DNA of 64,000 bases from an uncultured Defluviitaleaceae bacterium (GCA_964468805.1 CAYXWM010000003.1:33303-97302), one strand, 5' to 3'; shown: positions 4,794 through 64,000, counted from the stretch's first letter. Notes: generated by a model not told the origin, from the sequence alone. Numbers and translations: made by a program.

Positions 4794-5071
4794 ACCTCCG
4801 TCAATTAAGTTTAGTTGAAAAATGGTCTTTTTAATTAAAATTTAGACATACCAAAAGTAATGCTGTCACTGAATCAAGTTTACGAAGGACGCCTAATGAA
4901 CATATTTGTTGTTCTAATGAATTATACTCAATATTTTTTACAATGCAAGTAAATTTTTAAACCTTGCAGAAAAAATGAGTATATACGTAATATTAGAGGC
5001 AGTTCTGTTGATGGCATTTTTCCACATGTAAACAAAGAGGGAACGCCCTTGATGCATAGAATTTTTTTATA

Positions 5072-5206
5072 TACACTCAATTGCATAAGGAATAGTGACA
5101 AAAGATATTCTTCATAAACGGTTCACTCTTGTGTTTATGAAAAAAACGCCGGTCGCTCACCATTACCAATAAACGTTTTTGTTACTACTTAACTCGAAAT
5201 TAAGTA
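5072..5206. repeat. family-1 MITE-like palindromic repeat, copy A (most diverged)
   Basis: Aligns end to end with copies at 13708, 18461, 56422, 56559 and 62529. Termini are TACACTCAATT / AATTAAGTA, each abutting TA. Confidence 0.8.
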
Positions 5207-5286
5207 TACATCTGATAACAAATAGAATCATAGGCAGAATTTTTACTCGAATTTTACTGTACTTGGTCATATTTTACGAAAATAAG

Positions 5287-5315
5287 TTGACTTTTTGCAG
5301 TTATGTGAATATAAT
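5287..5315 (+). promoter_or_regulatory. sigma-A type promoter for the small membrane protein-lgt pair
   Basis: TTGACT, 17-nt spacer, TATAAT, about 45 nt upstream of the start at 5361. Confidence 0.55.
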
Positions 5316-5360
5316 ATGTATAAAATTAATAAAAGTAAAATTTGAGAGGAGAAACGAATA

Positions 5361-5618
5361 ATGGCAGTTGCTTCAATGGTGTTAGGTATTGTTGCATTGG
5401 TATTTTTGTTTATACCCGGCGTAAACCTTCTGGGAATAATTGTTGCCATAGTTGGACTTGTACTTGGTGTAATCGCAAGAAAATCACCTGAAAACAGGGG
5501 TATGGCCACAGCCGGTATGGTATGTTCCATAATATCCTTGGCTATATGTACGGCAGCATGGATCGCTTGTCTTATGTGTTACGGTTCCATAGCAAGCAGA
5601 TTACCATTGTTGTATTGA
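5361..5618 (+). CDS. small integral membrane protein (DUF4190-like)
   Basis: 85 aa with two or three hydrophobic helices. N-terminal MAVASMVLGIVALVFLFIPG pattern is typical of DUF4190-type proteins. RBS GAGAGGAG. Confidence 0.6.
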   Translation: MAVASMVLGIVALVFLFIPGVNLLGIIVAIVGLVLGVIARKSPENRGMATAGMVCSIISLAICTAAWIACLMCYGSIASRLPLLY

Positions 5619-5655
5619 TTTTTTACGCTCATAAAACATGACAAGGAAATGATAA

Positions 5656-6441
5656 ATGTTATCTTATGTTTCTGTGTTTGGTCTTACCTTGCCTGCCTAT
5701 GGTTTAGCTGTAACTATAAGCTGGCTTTTGGGCGGTTACGTTGCCGTTAGAATAGCAAAGCAGCATAAGTTAGACGAAAATGACACTATATTAATACTGA
5801 TTTATTCAACAATAATCGGTTTTATCGGCGCTAAAATTTTGTTTTTAATAACGGTTTTACCTCAAGTGATTTATCTCTTACATAATGATCCCAACCTGTT
5901 TTTTGAAAACTTAATTAATAGCGGTTTTGTTTATTACGGCGGCGTTATAGGCGGAATTTTCGGTGCTTGGCTTTGTTCAAAGATTCACAAAATAAAGTTA
6001 CTTCCCCATATTTCTTCTATAATCGTAGCTTTGCCCTTGGCACATGCCATCGGTAGGGTTGGCTGTTTTTTGGTGGGTTGCTGTTACGGATTGGAAAACC
6101 ATGATTTTGGCATAATCTATCATGCGTCTCCGGTTGCTCCAAATAATATTCCTCTGTTGCCTGTTCAATTGTATGAATCATTTTTTAATCTCATACTCTT
6201 TGCAGTACTTTATCGAATATCAAAAAGAGCAAAATCCTACGATTCAACCATCTTGGTTTATGTGTATTCCTATGCAGTCATAAGATTCTTTTTGGAATTT
6301 TTACGTTTTGATTCTTCAAGAGGTAATATAGCAGGGCTTTATACTTCTCAATGGATTTCAGTAGGTCTGGTGATTTGCTGTTTGTTGTATCAGTTTTTAT
6401 TGCCGAGACTGTTTTTAAGACGTAATAATACAGATAAATAA
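5656..6441 (+). CDS. lgt: prolipoprotein diacylglyceryl transferase
   Basis: 261 aa polytopic membrane protein with the Lgt signature GRVGCFLVGCCYG and conserved Y/R residues. Confidence 0.85.
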   Translation: MLSYVSVFGLTLPAYGLAVTISWLLGGYVAVRIAKQHKLDENDTILILIYSTIIGFIGAKILFLITVLPQVIYLLHNDPNLFFENLINSGFVYYGGVIGGIFGAWLCSKIHKIKLLPHISSIIVALPLAHAIGRVGCFLVGCCYGLENHDFGIIYHASPVAPNNIPLLPVQLYESFFNLILFAVLYRISKRAKSYDSTILVYVYSYAVIRFFLEFLRFDSSRGNIAGLYTSQWISVGLVICCLLYQFLLPRLFLRRNNTDK

Positions 6442-6444
6442 AAC

Positions 6445-6490
6445 AAAAAGCTTACAACCATAGTTTATTGGCAGTAAGCTTTTCTTGTTT
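6445..6490. terminator. bidirectional terminator between lgt and the S41 peptidase gene
   Basis: AAAAAGCTTAC ... GTAAGCTTTT stem with flanking A/T runs. Confidence 0.65.
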
Positions 6491-6513
6491 TATATTTGTA
6501 TTTTAAAATACAT

Positions 6514-9559: not shown

Positions 9560-9698
9560 TTTGAGCGGAATAGTCAAATAAATAGAAAACTTTTTTGTAG
9601 AATTACATTAAAATTCCTTTACTGTAATTCCTGCAAGTAATACTTCACTAATGTTGATTTACATACATAACATAAAATAAAAGTTAAGGGTGAGTGTT

Positions 9699-13698: not shown

Positions 13699-13707
13699 TT
13701 GGGTTTA

Positions 13708-13829
13708 TACTTAATTTCGAGTTAAATAGTAACAAAAGTGGTGAGCGACCGGTGTTTTTTTCATGAAAACGCAAGAGGGAAGCGTTTACGAAGAATAGCT
13801 TTTGTTACTATTCATCATGCAATTAAGGA
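13708..13829. repeat. family-1 MITE-like repeat, copy B (short internal deletion)
   Basis: Same termini (TACTTAATT / AATTAAGGA) with TA on both sides. It lacks about 12 nt (CGTATATTCGTG) present in copy F. Confidence 0.85.
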
Positions 13830-13926
13830 TAATTGGAGATATAACTTGCTTCATCCGGAATTTGTACTTACATTGAATCCTTTTGTTCCGAATATAATGT
13901 TAAAAAAACCGAAAGGAATAGGATGA

Positions 13927-18389: not shown

Positions 18390-18460
18390 GCTGTCCTCCA
18401 AAATTCCTATGGCAATGATTATAGCGGATTAAATTGATATAAGGCAGTGAATACCGATTA

Positions 18461-18592
18461 TACTTAATTTCATAAGGAATAGCTACAAAAGCTATTCTTC
18501 GTAAACGGTACGCTCTTGTGTTTTTATAAAAAAACACCGGTCGCTCACCACTGCGAATATACGCTTTTGTATCTACTTAACCGGAAATTATA
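18461..18592. repeat. family-1 MITE-like repeat, copy C (one degenerate end)
   Basis: Left terminus is TA+TACTTAATT. The right terminus is decayed (AATTATATTTA). The interior is collinear with the other copies. Confidence 0.8.
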
Positions 18593-18619
18593 TTTAGGTA
18601 AACCACTGTACCGGTAAAT

Positions 18620-56411: not shown

Positions 56412-56421
56412 TTTTCATATA

Positions 56422-56556
56422 TACTTAATTATATAAGGTATAGTAACAAAAGCTATTCTTCGTAAACGGTTCGCTCTTGCGTTTTTTATAAAAAAACACC
56501 GGTCGCTCACCACTACGAATTTACGCTTTTGTTACTGCTTAACCGGAAATTAAGTA
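56422..56556. repeat. family-1 MITE-like repeat, copy D (first unit of tandem dimer)
   Basis: 135 bp, TACTTAATT...AATTAAGTA, TA on both sides. The right-hand TA is shared with copy E. Confidence 0.9.
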
Positions 56557-56558
56557 TA

Positions 56559-56693
56559 TACTTAATTATATAAGGAATAGTAACAAAAGCTATTCTTCGT
56601 AAACGGTTCGCTCTTGCGTTTTTATGAAAAAAACACCGGTCGCTCACCACTACGAATTTACGCTTTTGTTACTGCTTAACTCTAAATCAAGTA
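56559..56693. repeat. family-1 MITE-like repeat, copy E (second unit of tandem dimer)
   Basis: 135 bp, nearly identical to copy D and in the same orientation. Right terminus AATCAAGTA followed by TA. Confidence 0.9.
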
Positions 56694-56720
56694 TAAAAGT
56701 ATATTAACCGGTTTGTATTA

Positions 56721-62520: not shown

Positions 62521-62528
62521 CTTTTTTA

Positions 62529-62662
62529 TACTTAATTTCGAGTTATGTAGTAACAAAAGCGTATATTCGTGTGGTGAGCGACCGGTGTTTTTTCATGAAA
62601 AACGCAAGAGCGAACCGTTTACGAAGAATAGCTTTTGTTACTATTCCTTATGCAATTAAGTA
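62529..62662. repeat. family-1 MITE-like repeat, copy F (reference copy)
   Basis: 134 bp. Perfect 9-bp termini TACTTAATT / AATTAAGTA, subterminal 13-bp inverted pair TAGTAACAAAAGC / GCTTTTGTTACTA, central palindrome TTTTTCATGAAAAA, TA on both sides. Confidence 0.9.
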
Positions 62663-62816
62663 TAAGGGTTAATAAACTCACATTATTTTAGCGTGAGTTC
62701 GACGTAGTCGAACAATTTTCAAAGCGAATTAAATTCCAAAGGAATTTTGATGTTATGAAGCAATTTTTACAATGCTTTTATTGCAAAACAGCCGAATTAA
62801 ATTTTTATCAAATGCA

Positions 62817-63440
62817 TTATTTTGCTAAACTTACGTAAATATTATCTTGAAATCGGTTATCCTTATCTTTGTAATCCTCTTGAAGATATCCGAAAACATA
62901 ATGGTCAGCGAATACTTTCACAACCAAGCCTTTTCTTATTAATCCCTCTTGCACAAAACCGGCTTTTTCGGCTACGATTTTGGAACCCGGGTTAACCGTA
63001 AAGCAACGCAAAACCAGTCTTTTTAAATCCATGTGAGTAAAAGCCAACTTAACGGCTGCATTTAGGGCTTCTGTGGCTATACCCTTGCCCCAGTAATTCT
63101 TGTTTATTCTATAACCCACTTCGGCTTGCCTTTTCATAACAAAATCATAGATTATAATTTCACCGATAACCTTTTGTTCCGGTAAATATTCAATGGCAAA
63201 ACGAAGTTCTCTTTTTGCCCTGTATTCTATATCTATATTTGTTAGGTAATCGTATTCCGGCGTTTCAAATTCATCATGCAAAAAACCTGTTTCCAAGTCA
63301 TAATATCCGCAGTATTTTTGCACTTCCAAATCGTTGAGGAATTCGTTTAAGTCGTTAAAATCCTTCCAAACGGCTCGGCGTAGATACAATCTTTCAGTCT
63401 TAATTTCCGGAAAATGCACAAAACAATCATCAAAGCTCAT
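62817..63440 (-). CDS. GNAT family N-acetyltransferase (RimJ/RimL-like)
   Basis: 207 aa. Acetyl-CoA binding region NKNYWGKGIATEAL. 4-nt start/stop overlap with the upstream gene. Confidence 0.8.
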   Translation of the reverse strand: MSFDDCFVHFPEIKTERLYLRRAVWKDFNDLNEFLNDLEVQKYCGYYDLETGFLHDEFETPEYDYLTNIDIEYRAKRELRFAIEYLPEQKVIGEIIIYDFVMKRQAEVGYRINKNYWGKGIATEALNAAVKLAFTHMDLKRLVLRCFTVNPGSKIVAEKAGFVQEGLIRKGLVVKVFADHYVFGYLQEDYKDKDNRFQDNIYVSLAK

Positions 63441-64000
63441 TTGTAAACCCCCATATATTTTGTCAGTAGCTTTTCAGGTTTGTACGCAAGTTTGGAACGT
63501 CTTAAACCTTCTATTCCCAAGTCTTCCTCACGGTTGATAAATTCATAATCGGAGCAGGCGTAAACCGCAAAATCTCTGTTTATAGCTTGATATATACCGT
63601 TATAATTGTGGTCTGCTTTTTCTACAAATATATCAAACATATTCGTGTAAGACGGTGCCCCGTAGGTATAGCCCAGAACTTTGCCGTCTATTTTAACCAT
63701 GCCGCCTTTCAGACCAAGCCGGTTCCAATTATCAAAAACCCTGCGTACTATTTCATTTTCCGTTTCAAGAGACGAGGTTTCCGGGTTTTTATCCGAATTG
63801 TCTTCAAGCCATTTTTGTTGAAATTCCCAAGCCTCTTCAAGATTATTTTCGGTAAGGGGTTCGAAGCTGTAACGTGTTCCGTATTTGTTTAAGAACAGAT
63901 TCAGATTGTTTCTGCGTTTTTTTAAATCTGAGCCCTCTAAGGTTATTAGGCGTTTAGATTGGTATATATATTCTGCCCATCCTCTGTCCGTGGTAAATTC
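63437..64000 (-). CDS. DUF2156-like protein (MprF C-terminal-type acyl/aminoacyl-transferase fold), 5' end outside window
   Basis: The minus-strand frame is open from the window edge (EFTTDRGWAEYIYQSKRL...KKRRNNLN...) through the tracked ORF at 63437-63700. Family assignment is by pattern recognition only. Confidence 0.6.
   Translation of the reverse strand, partial: EFTTDRGWAEYIYQSKRLITLEGSDLKKRRNNLNLFLNKYGTRYSFEPLTENNLEEAWEFQQKWLEDNSDKNPETSSLETENEIVRRVFDNWNRLGLKGGMVKIDGKVLGYTYGAPSYTNMFDIFVEKADHNYNGIYQAINRDFAVYACSDYEFINREEDLGIEGLRRSKLAYKPEKLLTKYMGVYK

Follow-up and report, generated by a model that had tools for sequence, protein, structure and literature searches.

A family of TA-flanked mobile hairpin repeats with a structured core in Clostridia

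Introduction

What is the palindromic repeat that occurs six times, always between genes, in a 64,000-nucleotide stretch of chromosome from an uncultured Defluviitaleaceae bacterium (GCA_964468805.1, CAYXWM010000003.1:33303-97302; "the window" below means this whole stretch)? An earlier note, made from the sequence alone and centred on the copy near the 3' end of the window (copy 6, 62527-62664), had proposed a MITE (miniature inverted-repeat transposable element) of the Correia or RUP type and, as an alternative, a dispersed structured RNA or protein-binding cassette. The analysis reported here shows that the repeat is real and belongs to a family not described before, of mobile, non-coding hairpin repeats of ~138 bp in Clostridia, for which the best reading is a new family of TA-flanked MITE of the ERIC/Correia/RUP class with a structured core. 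The element is more than a pair of termini with filler between them: it is a full-length hairpin with covarying arms, a fixed core of ~50 nt and several conserved junction loops.

Relatives and the covarying hairpin

Relatives were sought by a one-genome-per-species scan with 20 nt of the core and by a metagenome scan with a two-part core pattern. The first recovered ~16 copies in a metagenome-assembled genome (MAG) of a termite-gut Defluviitaleaceae bacterium, WQVC01, and one near-identical copy on contig L001, together with a few chance or coding matches; the second gave further families, from two termite-gut samples. With a covariance model (CM), ~45 distinct copies are counted in the related loci (given L numbers here), with at least nine arm families represented among them (W, G, M, M2, T, C, R, K and A) plus a single H copy. 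Arm composition follows the host, being AT-rich in the window (38% G+C) and GC-rich in the MAG (~50% G+C). Most families end in TATA(G/C)T; families A and H deviate, and the H copy (L005:5263-5412) contains the core between ends, GACTTCTTGCA...TGCAAGAAGTC, that lack TATA. A sister genome, GCA_964392115.1, encodes a homologue 96% identical to the CheV protein of the window, more distant homologues of which are labelled Defluviitaleaceae, and carries two copies (L064:6885-7023 and L066:13642-13780) with inner arms and core as in the window and with termini that read TATAGTCAAATG in place of TATACTTAATT.

Each member forms one long imperfect hairpin of five helices. The termini make up P1 (9-13 bp), which is followed by an internal loop and by P2 (12-13 bp). 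The loop past P2 has a conserved 5' UAAAU and a conserved 3' AUA(G) and leads to P3 (5-7 bp); the junction past P3, with GUUU(A) on its 3' side, gives way to a short core helix and finally to a central stem-loop, P5, which closes the structure. P5 differs in both length and sequence between families, and it covaries.

Covariation was scored on an unbiased MAFFT alignment of 31 members. Standard pairs occupy 94.5% of cells, a share that drops to 35-46% if the 3' partners are shifted by 1-3 columns, and changes on both sides are seen in 34 of the 43 pairs; the observed values were reached by none of 500 shuffles. The arms thus evolve freely provided that pairing persists, while ~35 unpaired nucleotides are conserved. 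The predicted RNA folds have energies of -47 to -73 kcal/mol (z = -6 to -10), and for copy 6 the values are -49.1 kcal/mol on the plus strand and -37.6 on the minus strand, with z = -6.9. Rfam had been suggested in the earlier note as a check. No Rfam 15 family matches anywhere in the window at the gathering threshold, and the tandem copies gave only sub-threshold noise at permissive thresholds.

Several further sources were negative. BLASTN of one window copy and one MAG copy against 72,556 plasmids produced no match, and pattern scans of viral contigs gave no real match, seven loci returned by a looser pattern being at chance level with the core model. Among the papers searched, no relevant one contains the core strings, and two recent MITE surveys report nothing comparable for Clostridia.

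Other repeats were encountered beside the family or through its core pattern. Copies of three different arm families crowd into 650 bp at L005:5093-5740 (R, 5093-5242; H, 5263-5412; C, 5600-5740), a pile-up resembling that described for pneumococcal repeats. The termite-gut MAG also harbours a second, unrelated palindromic repeat of ~110 bp (…GCGAACGCCGTTGAGAACCGAGAAGGCGAGGCGGGAAACGCGGGCTTCTGCGCGTTTTCCGCCGAAGCCTGAGCGGGCTTCTCAAGTGCGTTCGC…), at L011:4064-4185, L061:8365-8470 and L049:8655-8760. This repeat is nested in several element copies, beside or replacing the 3' core, and once adjoins an element end via a common TA (adjacent copy, L008:5664 onward). On soil metagenome contigs (L025:2305-2481, L037:343-519 and L051:1298-1474) the core pattern found a palindromic segment of high G+C, containing GGGTGAGCGACCGGAGGCAGCC ... 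GAGCGAACCGGCTGCCTCCGGTTCGCTC, which sits just 5' of the start of an open reading frame (ORF; ATGTCGCACGCCAAACTG...). It has the same short motifs in another architecture and may be unrelated or a different structured leader.

The conserved core

Across at least nine arm families a core of ~50 nt is fixed, reading 5' GGUGAGCGACCGG - variable stem-loop - A-N-N-GAGCGAACC-GUUUAC 3'. It folds as 5' GGU-GA-GC-GA-CCG-(stem-loop)-ANN-GA-GC-GA-ACC 3', with GGU/ACC pairing outermost, followed in order by G·A and A·G, by G-C and C-G, by a second G·A and A·G, and by a small C-rich internal loop. A kink-turn reading of this core was considered and rejected, as the would-be unbulged strand has three extra invariant nucleotides (CCG) and position -1 would be C·C.

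The earlier note had described the GAGCGA motifs as a direct repeat. They are better read not as two binding sites in duplex DNA but as strands that face each other antiparallel in the fold. The distance between the motifs ranges from 34 to 49 nt, tracking the length of the central stem. Families R and K read GGUGCGC...GCGCACC; each "repeat" has changed one A to C, at positions that differ between the two, so that the outer G·A/A·G is swapped for Watson-Crick G-C/C-G, and the outer helix is GGC/GCC in family A and GCC/GGC in family H. Because of the varying spacing, the R and K swaps and the outer-helix changes in A and H, the motifs are taken as opposed strands of one structure in preference to two double-stranded sites. 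The structured part of the alternative offered in the earlier note survives as the covarying hairpin, and stands alongside the MITE reading.

GCGACCGG is invariant in every copy seen. Constraint was tested only in copies that had not been found via the core, namely the six in the window, four of family M2 and three of family R. In these the 13-nt 5' core shows no deviation from family consensus (0/169), compared with 70/1514 (4.6%) elsewhere (Fisher p = 8e-4); in the window copies alone the figures are 0/78 and 7.4%. The 3' core of the same resident copies deviates at 5/117, which is the background rate, and is mutated in three of the six window copies. Resident copies thus decay everywhere but GGTGAGCGACCGG. 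Because selection for transposition competence works on master copies and is unable to preserve a motif in a copy already inserted, this sequence appears to be under continuing selection in place, or copies that lose it are removed. That the centre is far more conserved than the arms suggests that something recognises the element.

Strand preference

The strand that reads GGTGAGCGACCGG...GAGCGAACC, designated F, is the selected folding strand. On F, G·U pairs number 58 and A·C mismatches 14, an A·C mismatch on F being a G·U pair on the opposite strand. CM scores are 80-158 bits on F and 12-54 bits on the opposite strand, and F is the more stable by 11-12 kcal/mol with RNA parameters, as against 1.4-2.4 kcal/mol with DNA parameters. 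As modelled, this asymmetry matches the expectation for selection on an RNA fold; G·T is the least bad mismatch in DNA, and a single-stranded DNA form would also be compatible. In several families the central stem on F is capped by c-GNA-g triloops (CGAAG, CGCAG), which are very stable in DNA hairpins.

Mobility and insertion sites

In the sister genome the sites of copies 1 and 2 are vacant despite syntenic flanking genes (site 2 on L064), and the sister copy at L064:6885-7023, downstream of rplT, has no counterpart in the window. One copy lies downstream of the same acetyltransferase gene in both genomes, with different termini and different left neighbours. In addition, copies from one genome resemble each other more than they resemble copies from another. 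Among 35 copies with two scorable neighbours, 19 lie between tandem, 9 between divergent and 7 between convergent genes, and F is sense or antisense to genes equally often. The element is considered mobile because its sites are not conserved between the sister genomes and its orientation is random relative to genes. It behaves as a selfish mobile element does, and not as would an RNA gene with conserved positions or a cis-regulatory RNA transcribed by read-through, and a cis-acting element of the 3' untranslated region, read through from the upstream gene, is ruled out by the random orientation. The mobility proposed in the earlier note is thus borne out, by insertion differences between the genomes and by copies that are not restricted to orthologous positions.

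TA adjoins 11 of the 12 copy ends in the window, the count that had also been given in the earlier note, the exception being the degenerate end of copy 3. Copies 4 and 5 repeat with a period of 137 nt and have one TA in common at their junction (…AAGTA-TA-TACTT…); this junction, GTA-TA-TAC, fits a 2-bp duplication of TA and not a 4-bp one. Together, the flanking TA and the tandem junction point to a possible TA target duplication.

AATAGTCAAATAAAT, at 9566-9580 in the window, shares 10-11 contiguous bases with the sister terminus TATAGTCAAATG; it lies downstream of rplT, in the spacer that contains the copy L064:6885-7023 in the sister genome. It may be a decayed remnant of a G-type terminus, although this reading did not hold up on alignment.

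Copies in the window and their surroundings

The six copies are 126-139 bp long and all intergenic, four in one orientation and two in the other (Table 1). Alignment and the CM both place them where the earlier note had, between genes and in both orientations, and the element is, as had been claimed, free of ORFs: a dispersed, non-coding repeat with inverted-repeat ends whose copies lie between ORFs. Searching the window with a CM made from relatives returns these six copies alone as convincing matches, with scores of 80-132 bits. Aligned in a common orientation, the six intervals have a mean column identity of 80% and pairwise identities of 76-95%. The termini of 9-11 bp, the 13-bp inner inverted pair, the A/T-rich central stem and the internal direct repeat, GAGCGACCGG ... 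GAGCGAACCG, are all present as first described. The inner 13-mer has 14 matches in the window where 3.7 are expected, and GCGACCGG occurs six times, each time within a copy, where 0.5 is expected. Copy 2 has lost the 5' half of P3 through a 13-nt internal deletion.

Table 1. Copies of the element in the window and parts of the focal copy. Copy coordinates include one flanking TA per side, and the sign gives the strand on which F lies.
Feature	Positions	Strand	Remarks
Copy 1	5070-5208	F on -	CM R1 93.3 bits; most diverged full-length copy; 3' core mutated to GAGTGAACC
Copy 2	13706-13831	F on +	CM R1 80.1 bits; 3' core GAGGGAAGC
Copy 3	18459-18596	F on -	CM R1 112 bits; one terminus degenerate; 3' core GAGCGTACC
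Copy 4	56420-56558	F on -	CM R1 132 bits; first of head-to-tail pair
Copy 5	56557-56695	F on -	Second of head-to-tail pair; 95% identity to copy 4
Copy 6 (focal)	62527-62664	F on +	Strand reads 5' GGTGAGCGACCGG ... GAGCGAACC 3'; CM R1 124.8 bits (+) vs 32.4 (-)
P1 5' half, TA-TACTTAATT	62527-62537	+	Pairs with 62654-62664; compensatory changes in 9/9 pairs across families
P2 5' half, TAGTAACAAAAGC	62548-62560	+	Pairs with 62631-62643; compensatory changes in 12/13 pairs
5' core GGTGAGCGACCGG	62573-62585	+	Outer GGU helix strand, G·A/A·G, GC, G·A/A·G, CCG
Central stem-loop P5, GTGTTTTTT-CAT-GAAAAACGC	62585-62605	+	Compensatory changes in 4/8 pairs; 98.7% of cells paired
3' core GAGCGAACC	62608-62616	+	Antiparallel to 5' GAGCGA; conserved between family consensuses
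P2 3' half, GCTTTTGTTACTA	62631-62643	+	Partner of 62548-62560
P1 3' half, AATTAAGTA-TA	62654-62664	+	Right terminus

The window is a stretch of ordinary chromosomal DNA from a member of the Clostridia that has flagella and forms spores, and it includes genes for SpoIIGA, sigma-E, Ku, LigD, IleRS, CheV and flagellin. Annotation of ~50 of its ORFs with Pfam and NCBIfam shows no transposase, recombinase or reverse transcriptase, in agreement with the earlier note as regards transposase. The element is set in AT-rich intergenic DNA, often directly past the T-run of a terminator. In the folded flanks, hairpins that resemble terminators and are followed by U runs lie at a distance of 6-25 nt from copies 2, 3, 4/5 and 6, and copy 2 lies 8 nt past the terminator hairpin of cheV; copy 1 has no convincing terminator nearby by the same method. 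Five of the six copies near an intrinsic terminator, as previously claimed, are therefore accounted for by copies 2, 3, 4, 5 (as the tandem partner) and 6. A simple terminator scanner did not call these flanking hairpins, which have bulged stems or loops of more than 8 nt.

Two further features of the window were noted. Between lgt and the gene for an S41 peptidase, at 6426-6503, an AT-rich (23% G+C) hairpin scores weakly, 21-23 bits, on both strands with the full-element model; lacking the core, it is probably a bidirectional terminator and not a member of the family. On the minus strand at 63437-63700, an 87-aa ORF matches LPG_synthase_C only in the C-terminal third of that profile (positions 185-296 of 298), while the corresponding place in the sister genome holds a 300-aa gene (L066:14544-15446). 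The window ORF may be a disrupted gene or reflect an upstream stop.

The Logan contigs L062, L063 and L065 (SRR10912415/6) encode the exact catalase and CheV proteins of the window, and they begin or end within copy 2; the repeat therefore disrupts assemblies of the window organism. Exact-protein look-ups of the proteins flanking copies in the window mostly gave no record, or led to short contigs broken within the repeat. L001 (CAZKFG010000116.1, 1811 bp), binned as "uncultured Acidaminococcales", ends in a copy 93-95% identical to those of the window. It looks like a mis-binned, repeat-terminated contig and not a second host class, the proteins of the window indicating Defluviitaleaceae-like Clostridia.

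Comparison with known repeats

Bacterial MITEs of the Correia, ERIC and RUP class are described as shorter than 200 bp, with terminal inverted repeats (TIRs), TA at the termini, a target-site duplication and transcripts that form long stem-loops (PMC2229807). The present element is shorter than 200 bp, non-coding, multi-copy and intergenic, has TIRs with TA, shows insertion polymorphism and is predicted to form a long stem-loop. Its earlier placement with Correia- and RUP-type MITEs is reasonable under that definition.

The closest resemblance in layout is to ERIC (also IRU or RU-1; 127 bp), a repeat of Enterobacteriaceae and Vibrionaceae that is of the same size class, intergenic, found in either orientation and predicted to fold over its whole length into an imperfect hairpin. 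Both elements have TA at both ends, and ERIC termini begin TATAC(T/C) where those of the window begin TATACT; RU-1 sequences from E. coli and Salmonella start with TATAC(T/C) (PMC2759123 Table 1a). The strands of ERIC also fold unequally (-49.9 vs -39.7 kcal/mol for the E. coli copy L068:81-207), its most conserved part is likewise central, and its mobilising transposase is unknown, as in the present element. The ERIC core, 5' (A/G)GUGAG(U/C)GA-AU-(central stem-loop)-U-GAGCGAAC 3', and that of the present element, 5' GGUGAGCGA-CCG-(stem-loop)-ANN-GAGCGAAC 3', have the same layout of tandem GA, 2 bp and tandem GA. A descriptor written by hand from the present family matches every member, ERIC, and one unrelated place in 1.15 Mb. 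Nevertheless, an nhmmer search with ERIC as query against 0.5 Mb containing all copies matched none of them, and the covariance models R1 and R2 (full, core) gave no match on the ERIC locus L068 at E <= 10. ERIC has no 13-bp P2 arm, no invariant CCGG and no A/U central stem, and the hosts belong to different phyla, Bacillota for the present element and Pseudomonadota for ERIC. The common motif may reflect common descent or convergence. As judged from sequence, the layout is like that of ERIC; membership of the ERIC family is not established. A bolder suggestion, which we consider doubtful, is that the double tandem-G·A core (5' GUGAGYGA ... GAGCGAAC 3' around a central stem-loop) is an ancient module, that the clostridial element and ERIC form one superfamily across two phyla, and that the GCGACCGG side docks a widely conserved mobilising or processing protein.

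Correia repeats (NEMIS, CREE) of Neisseria, 104-157 bp in length, are TA-flanked MITEs with long inverted termini, hairpin transcripts and an unknown transposase. Over the first 16 positions, the termini found in the MAG families (TATAGTGAATCAAATT...) agree with the published Correia repeat tatagtggattaaattt at 14; the window terminus TATACTTAATT matches the 26-bp Correia inverted repeat tatagtggattaa... more weakly, at 8 of 11. This terminal similarity is borderline once the number of comparisons is allowed for. The interior of Correia, by contrast, is set apart by its description, having no GAGCGA core, TIRs of 24-26 bp and an IHF site in the long form, whereas the conserved part of the present element is its central GA-rich internal loop.

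RUP of Streptococcus pneumoniae (107 bp, mobilised by IS630-Spn1) is a small AT-rich MITE of a Firmicute with short TIRs and insertion at TA, and was the model for the IS630 proposal in the earlier note. The link between RUP and its transposase rests on the identity of its TIRs with those of a resident insertion sequence (IS), and no conserved structured core has been reported for RUP, unlike the present element.

REP and REPIN sequences, mobilised by the Y1 transposase RAYT, are also hairpin-forming, strand-specific and intergenic at high copy number; they have a short invariant motif thought to be the recognition site of the enzyme, and persist by vertical inheritance within lineages. REPs are 20-40 nt long with a GTAG or CGTC tag, and a REPIN is two inverted REPs, while the present element has direct motifs and TA-flanked inverted ends. 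A REP/REPIN-RAYT assignment was rejected, there being no tag at the element ends, direct conserved motifs and no Y1_Tnp in the window. Ends of IS200/IS605 type were rejected on account of the TIRs and TA flanks and of the central, directly oriented motifs, and the last point also disposes of transposon ends of IR/DR type. Integron attC sites have RYYYAAC ... GTTRRRY core sites at their ends and a variable centre; here the ends are TATACTTAATT/AATTAAGTATA and the conservation is central, and an attC assignment was rejected.

Interpretation

We consider it moderately probable that the element is a TA-inserting MITE mobilised in trans, whose hairpin is selected on F, probably as RNA, and whose invariant loop strand, GCGACCGG, serves as a protein contact. 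Copies would be inserted at TA by a transposase acting in trans, the obvious candidate being an IS630/Tc1-like DDE enzyme in view of the TA flanks and of ends of TA|(T/C)AGTG type; Tc1-type ends read TA|CAGTG, and those of the element TA-TA(C/G)T...A(G/C)TA-TA. The hairpin would act when the F strand is single-stranded, most likely as transcribed RNA. It is mainly G·U pairs that make the two strands unequal. The side of the internal loop with the invariant GCGACCGG could offer a contact surface for a nuclease, an RNA-binding factor or the mobilising enzyme, by analogy with the action of RNase E and RNase III on ERIC and Correia transcripts.

Several observations weigh against this interpretation. 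No autonomous element or transposase is found among the ORFs of the window, and no terminus search beyond the window was made. Classical MITEs conserve their termini and not their interior; here the H copy keeps the core with quite different ends, and the termini of the sister genome differ while the interior is ~85% identical. The neutral-like decay of the 3' core in resident copies is an ill fit to a simple model in which the folded motif acts as a unit. Random orientation puts many copies on the wrong strand in read-through, and a role as RNA would need a promoter belonging to the element or a tolerance of inactive copies. Moreover, no clean empty site could be aligned at the four sites compared with the sister genome, the intergenic DNA being too diverged, and the tandem junction could alternatively have arisen by unequal recombination.

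The alternative that survives best, although we judge it unlikely, is a multi-copy structured non-coding RNA, either a small RNA or a ribonucleoprotein scaffold, carried on a mobile hairpin. F would be transcribed from its own or an adjacent promoter, and the GA-rich internal loop and the junction loops (UAAAU, GUUUA, AUAG) would bind a host protein. Such an RNA would account for the strong covariation in all helices, the ~35 conserved unpaired nucleotides and the rod-like fold with z-scores of -6 to -10, as well as for the G·U bias and large RNA-specific energy asymmetry in favour of F and for purifying selection on the 5' core of resident copies. It sits poorly with the lack of an Rfam match at gathering or permissive thresholds, with the lack of a conserved promoter or terminator accompanying the element, and with sites that are not conserved between the sister genomes. 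Copies also decay, as seen in the deletion in copy 2, the degenerate end of copy 3 and the mutated 3' cores of three of the six, and the TA-flanked inverted termini and tandem insertion are hallmarks of a transposon.

Ranked after it, and likewise improbable, is a replicator that follows REPIN-like logic: the hairpin would form in single-stranded DNA, for example on the lagging-strand template, and a structure-specific enzyme (an HUH/Y1 transposase or another recombinase) would recognise the core, excise the whole hairpin and reinsert it. A conserved core between variable termini, with one family having unrelated ends, would be expected of such an element, as would strand-specific folding, orientation that is random relative to transcription, c-GNA-g triloops on F in several families and the invariance of GCGACCGG in all copies. 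Nevertheless, no Y1 or HUH gene is present among the annotated ORFs of the window, and the element has neither the GTAG/CGTC tag nor the short REP unit. Elements of IS200/IS605 type have no terminal inverted repeats or TA flanks, and the present one has both. With DNA parameters the strands fold almost equally and the excess of G·T adds little stability; in addition, invariance of the 5' core in resident copies would be unexpected if the core mattered only during transposition.

Finally, a protein-binding cassette in double-stranded DNA, with either the pair of GAGCGA(A/C)C(C/G)G direct repeats or the 6-bp palindrome ACCGGT as dispersed operator or nucleoid-protein sites, is very unlikely: GCGACCGG is invariant and in the window found only within elements, and conservation in resident copies irrespective of orientation would suit a site at the DNA level, but the repeat spacing of 34-49 bp allows no helical phasing, family-specific changes at different positions restore antiparallel pairing and not repeat identity, the second repeat decays neutrally, and the compensatory evolution of the full-length arms is left unexplained.

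Significance

The repeat, present about once in every 10 kb, interrupts assemblies made from short reads, and the public contigs L001, L062, L063 and L065 end within it. Small TA-flanked hairpin repeats such as ERIC and Correia are in daily use for strain typing, and for all of them except RUP their movement is unexplained. In the present family, at least nine arm families keep their pairing around a fixed core of ~50 nt, which pinpoints the nucleotides, especially GCGACCGG, to mutate or to use as bait. The same core layout in ERIC of E. coli suggests a relationship across phyla. If the reading of the clostridial element and ERIC as one superfamily is true, the core would for the first time offer a way into the movement or action of ERIC-type repeats, which have been orphans since 1990-91.

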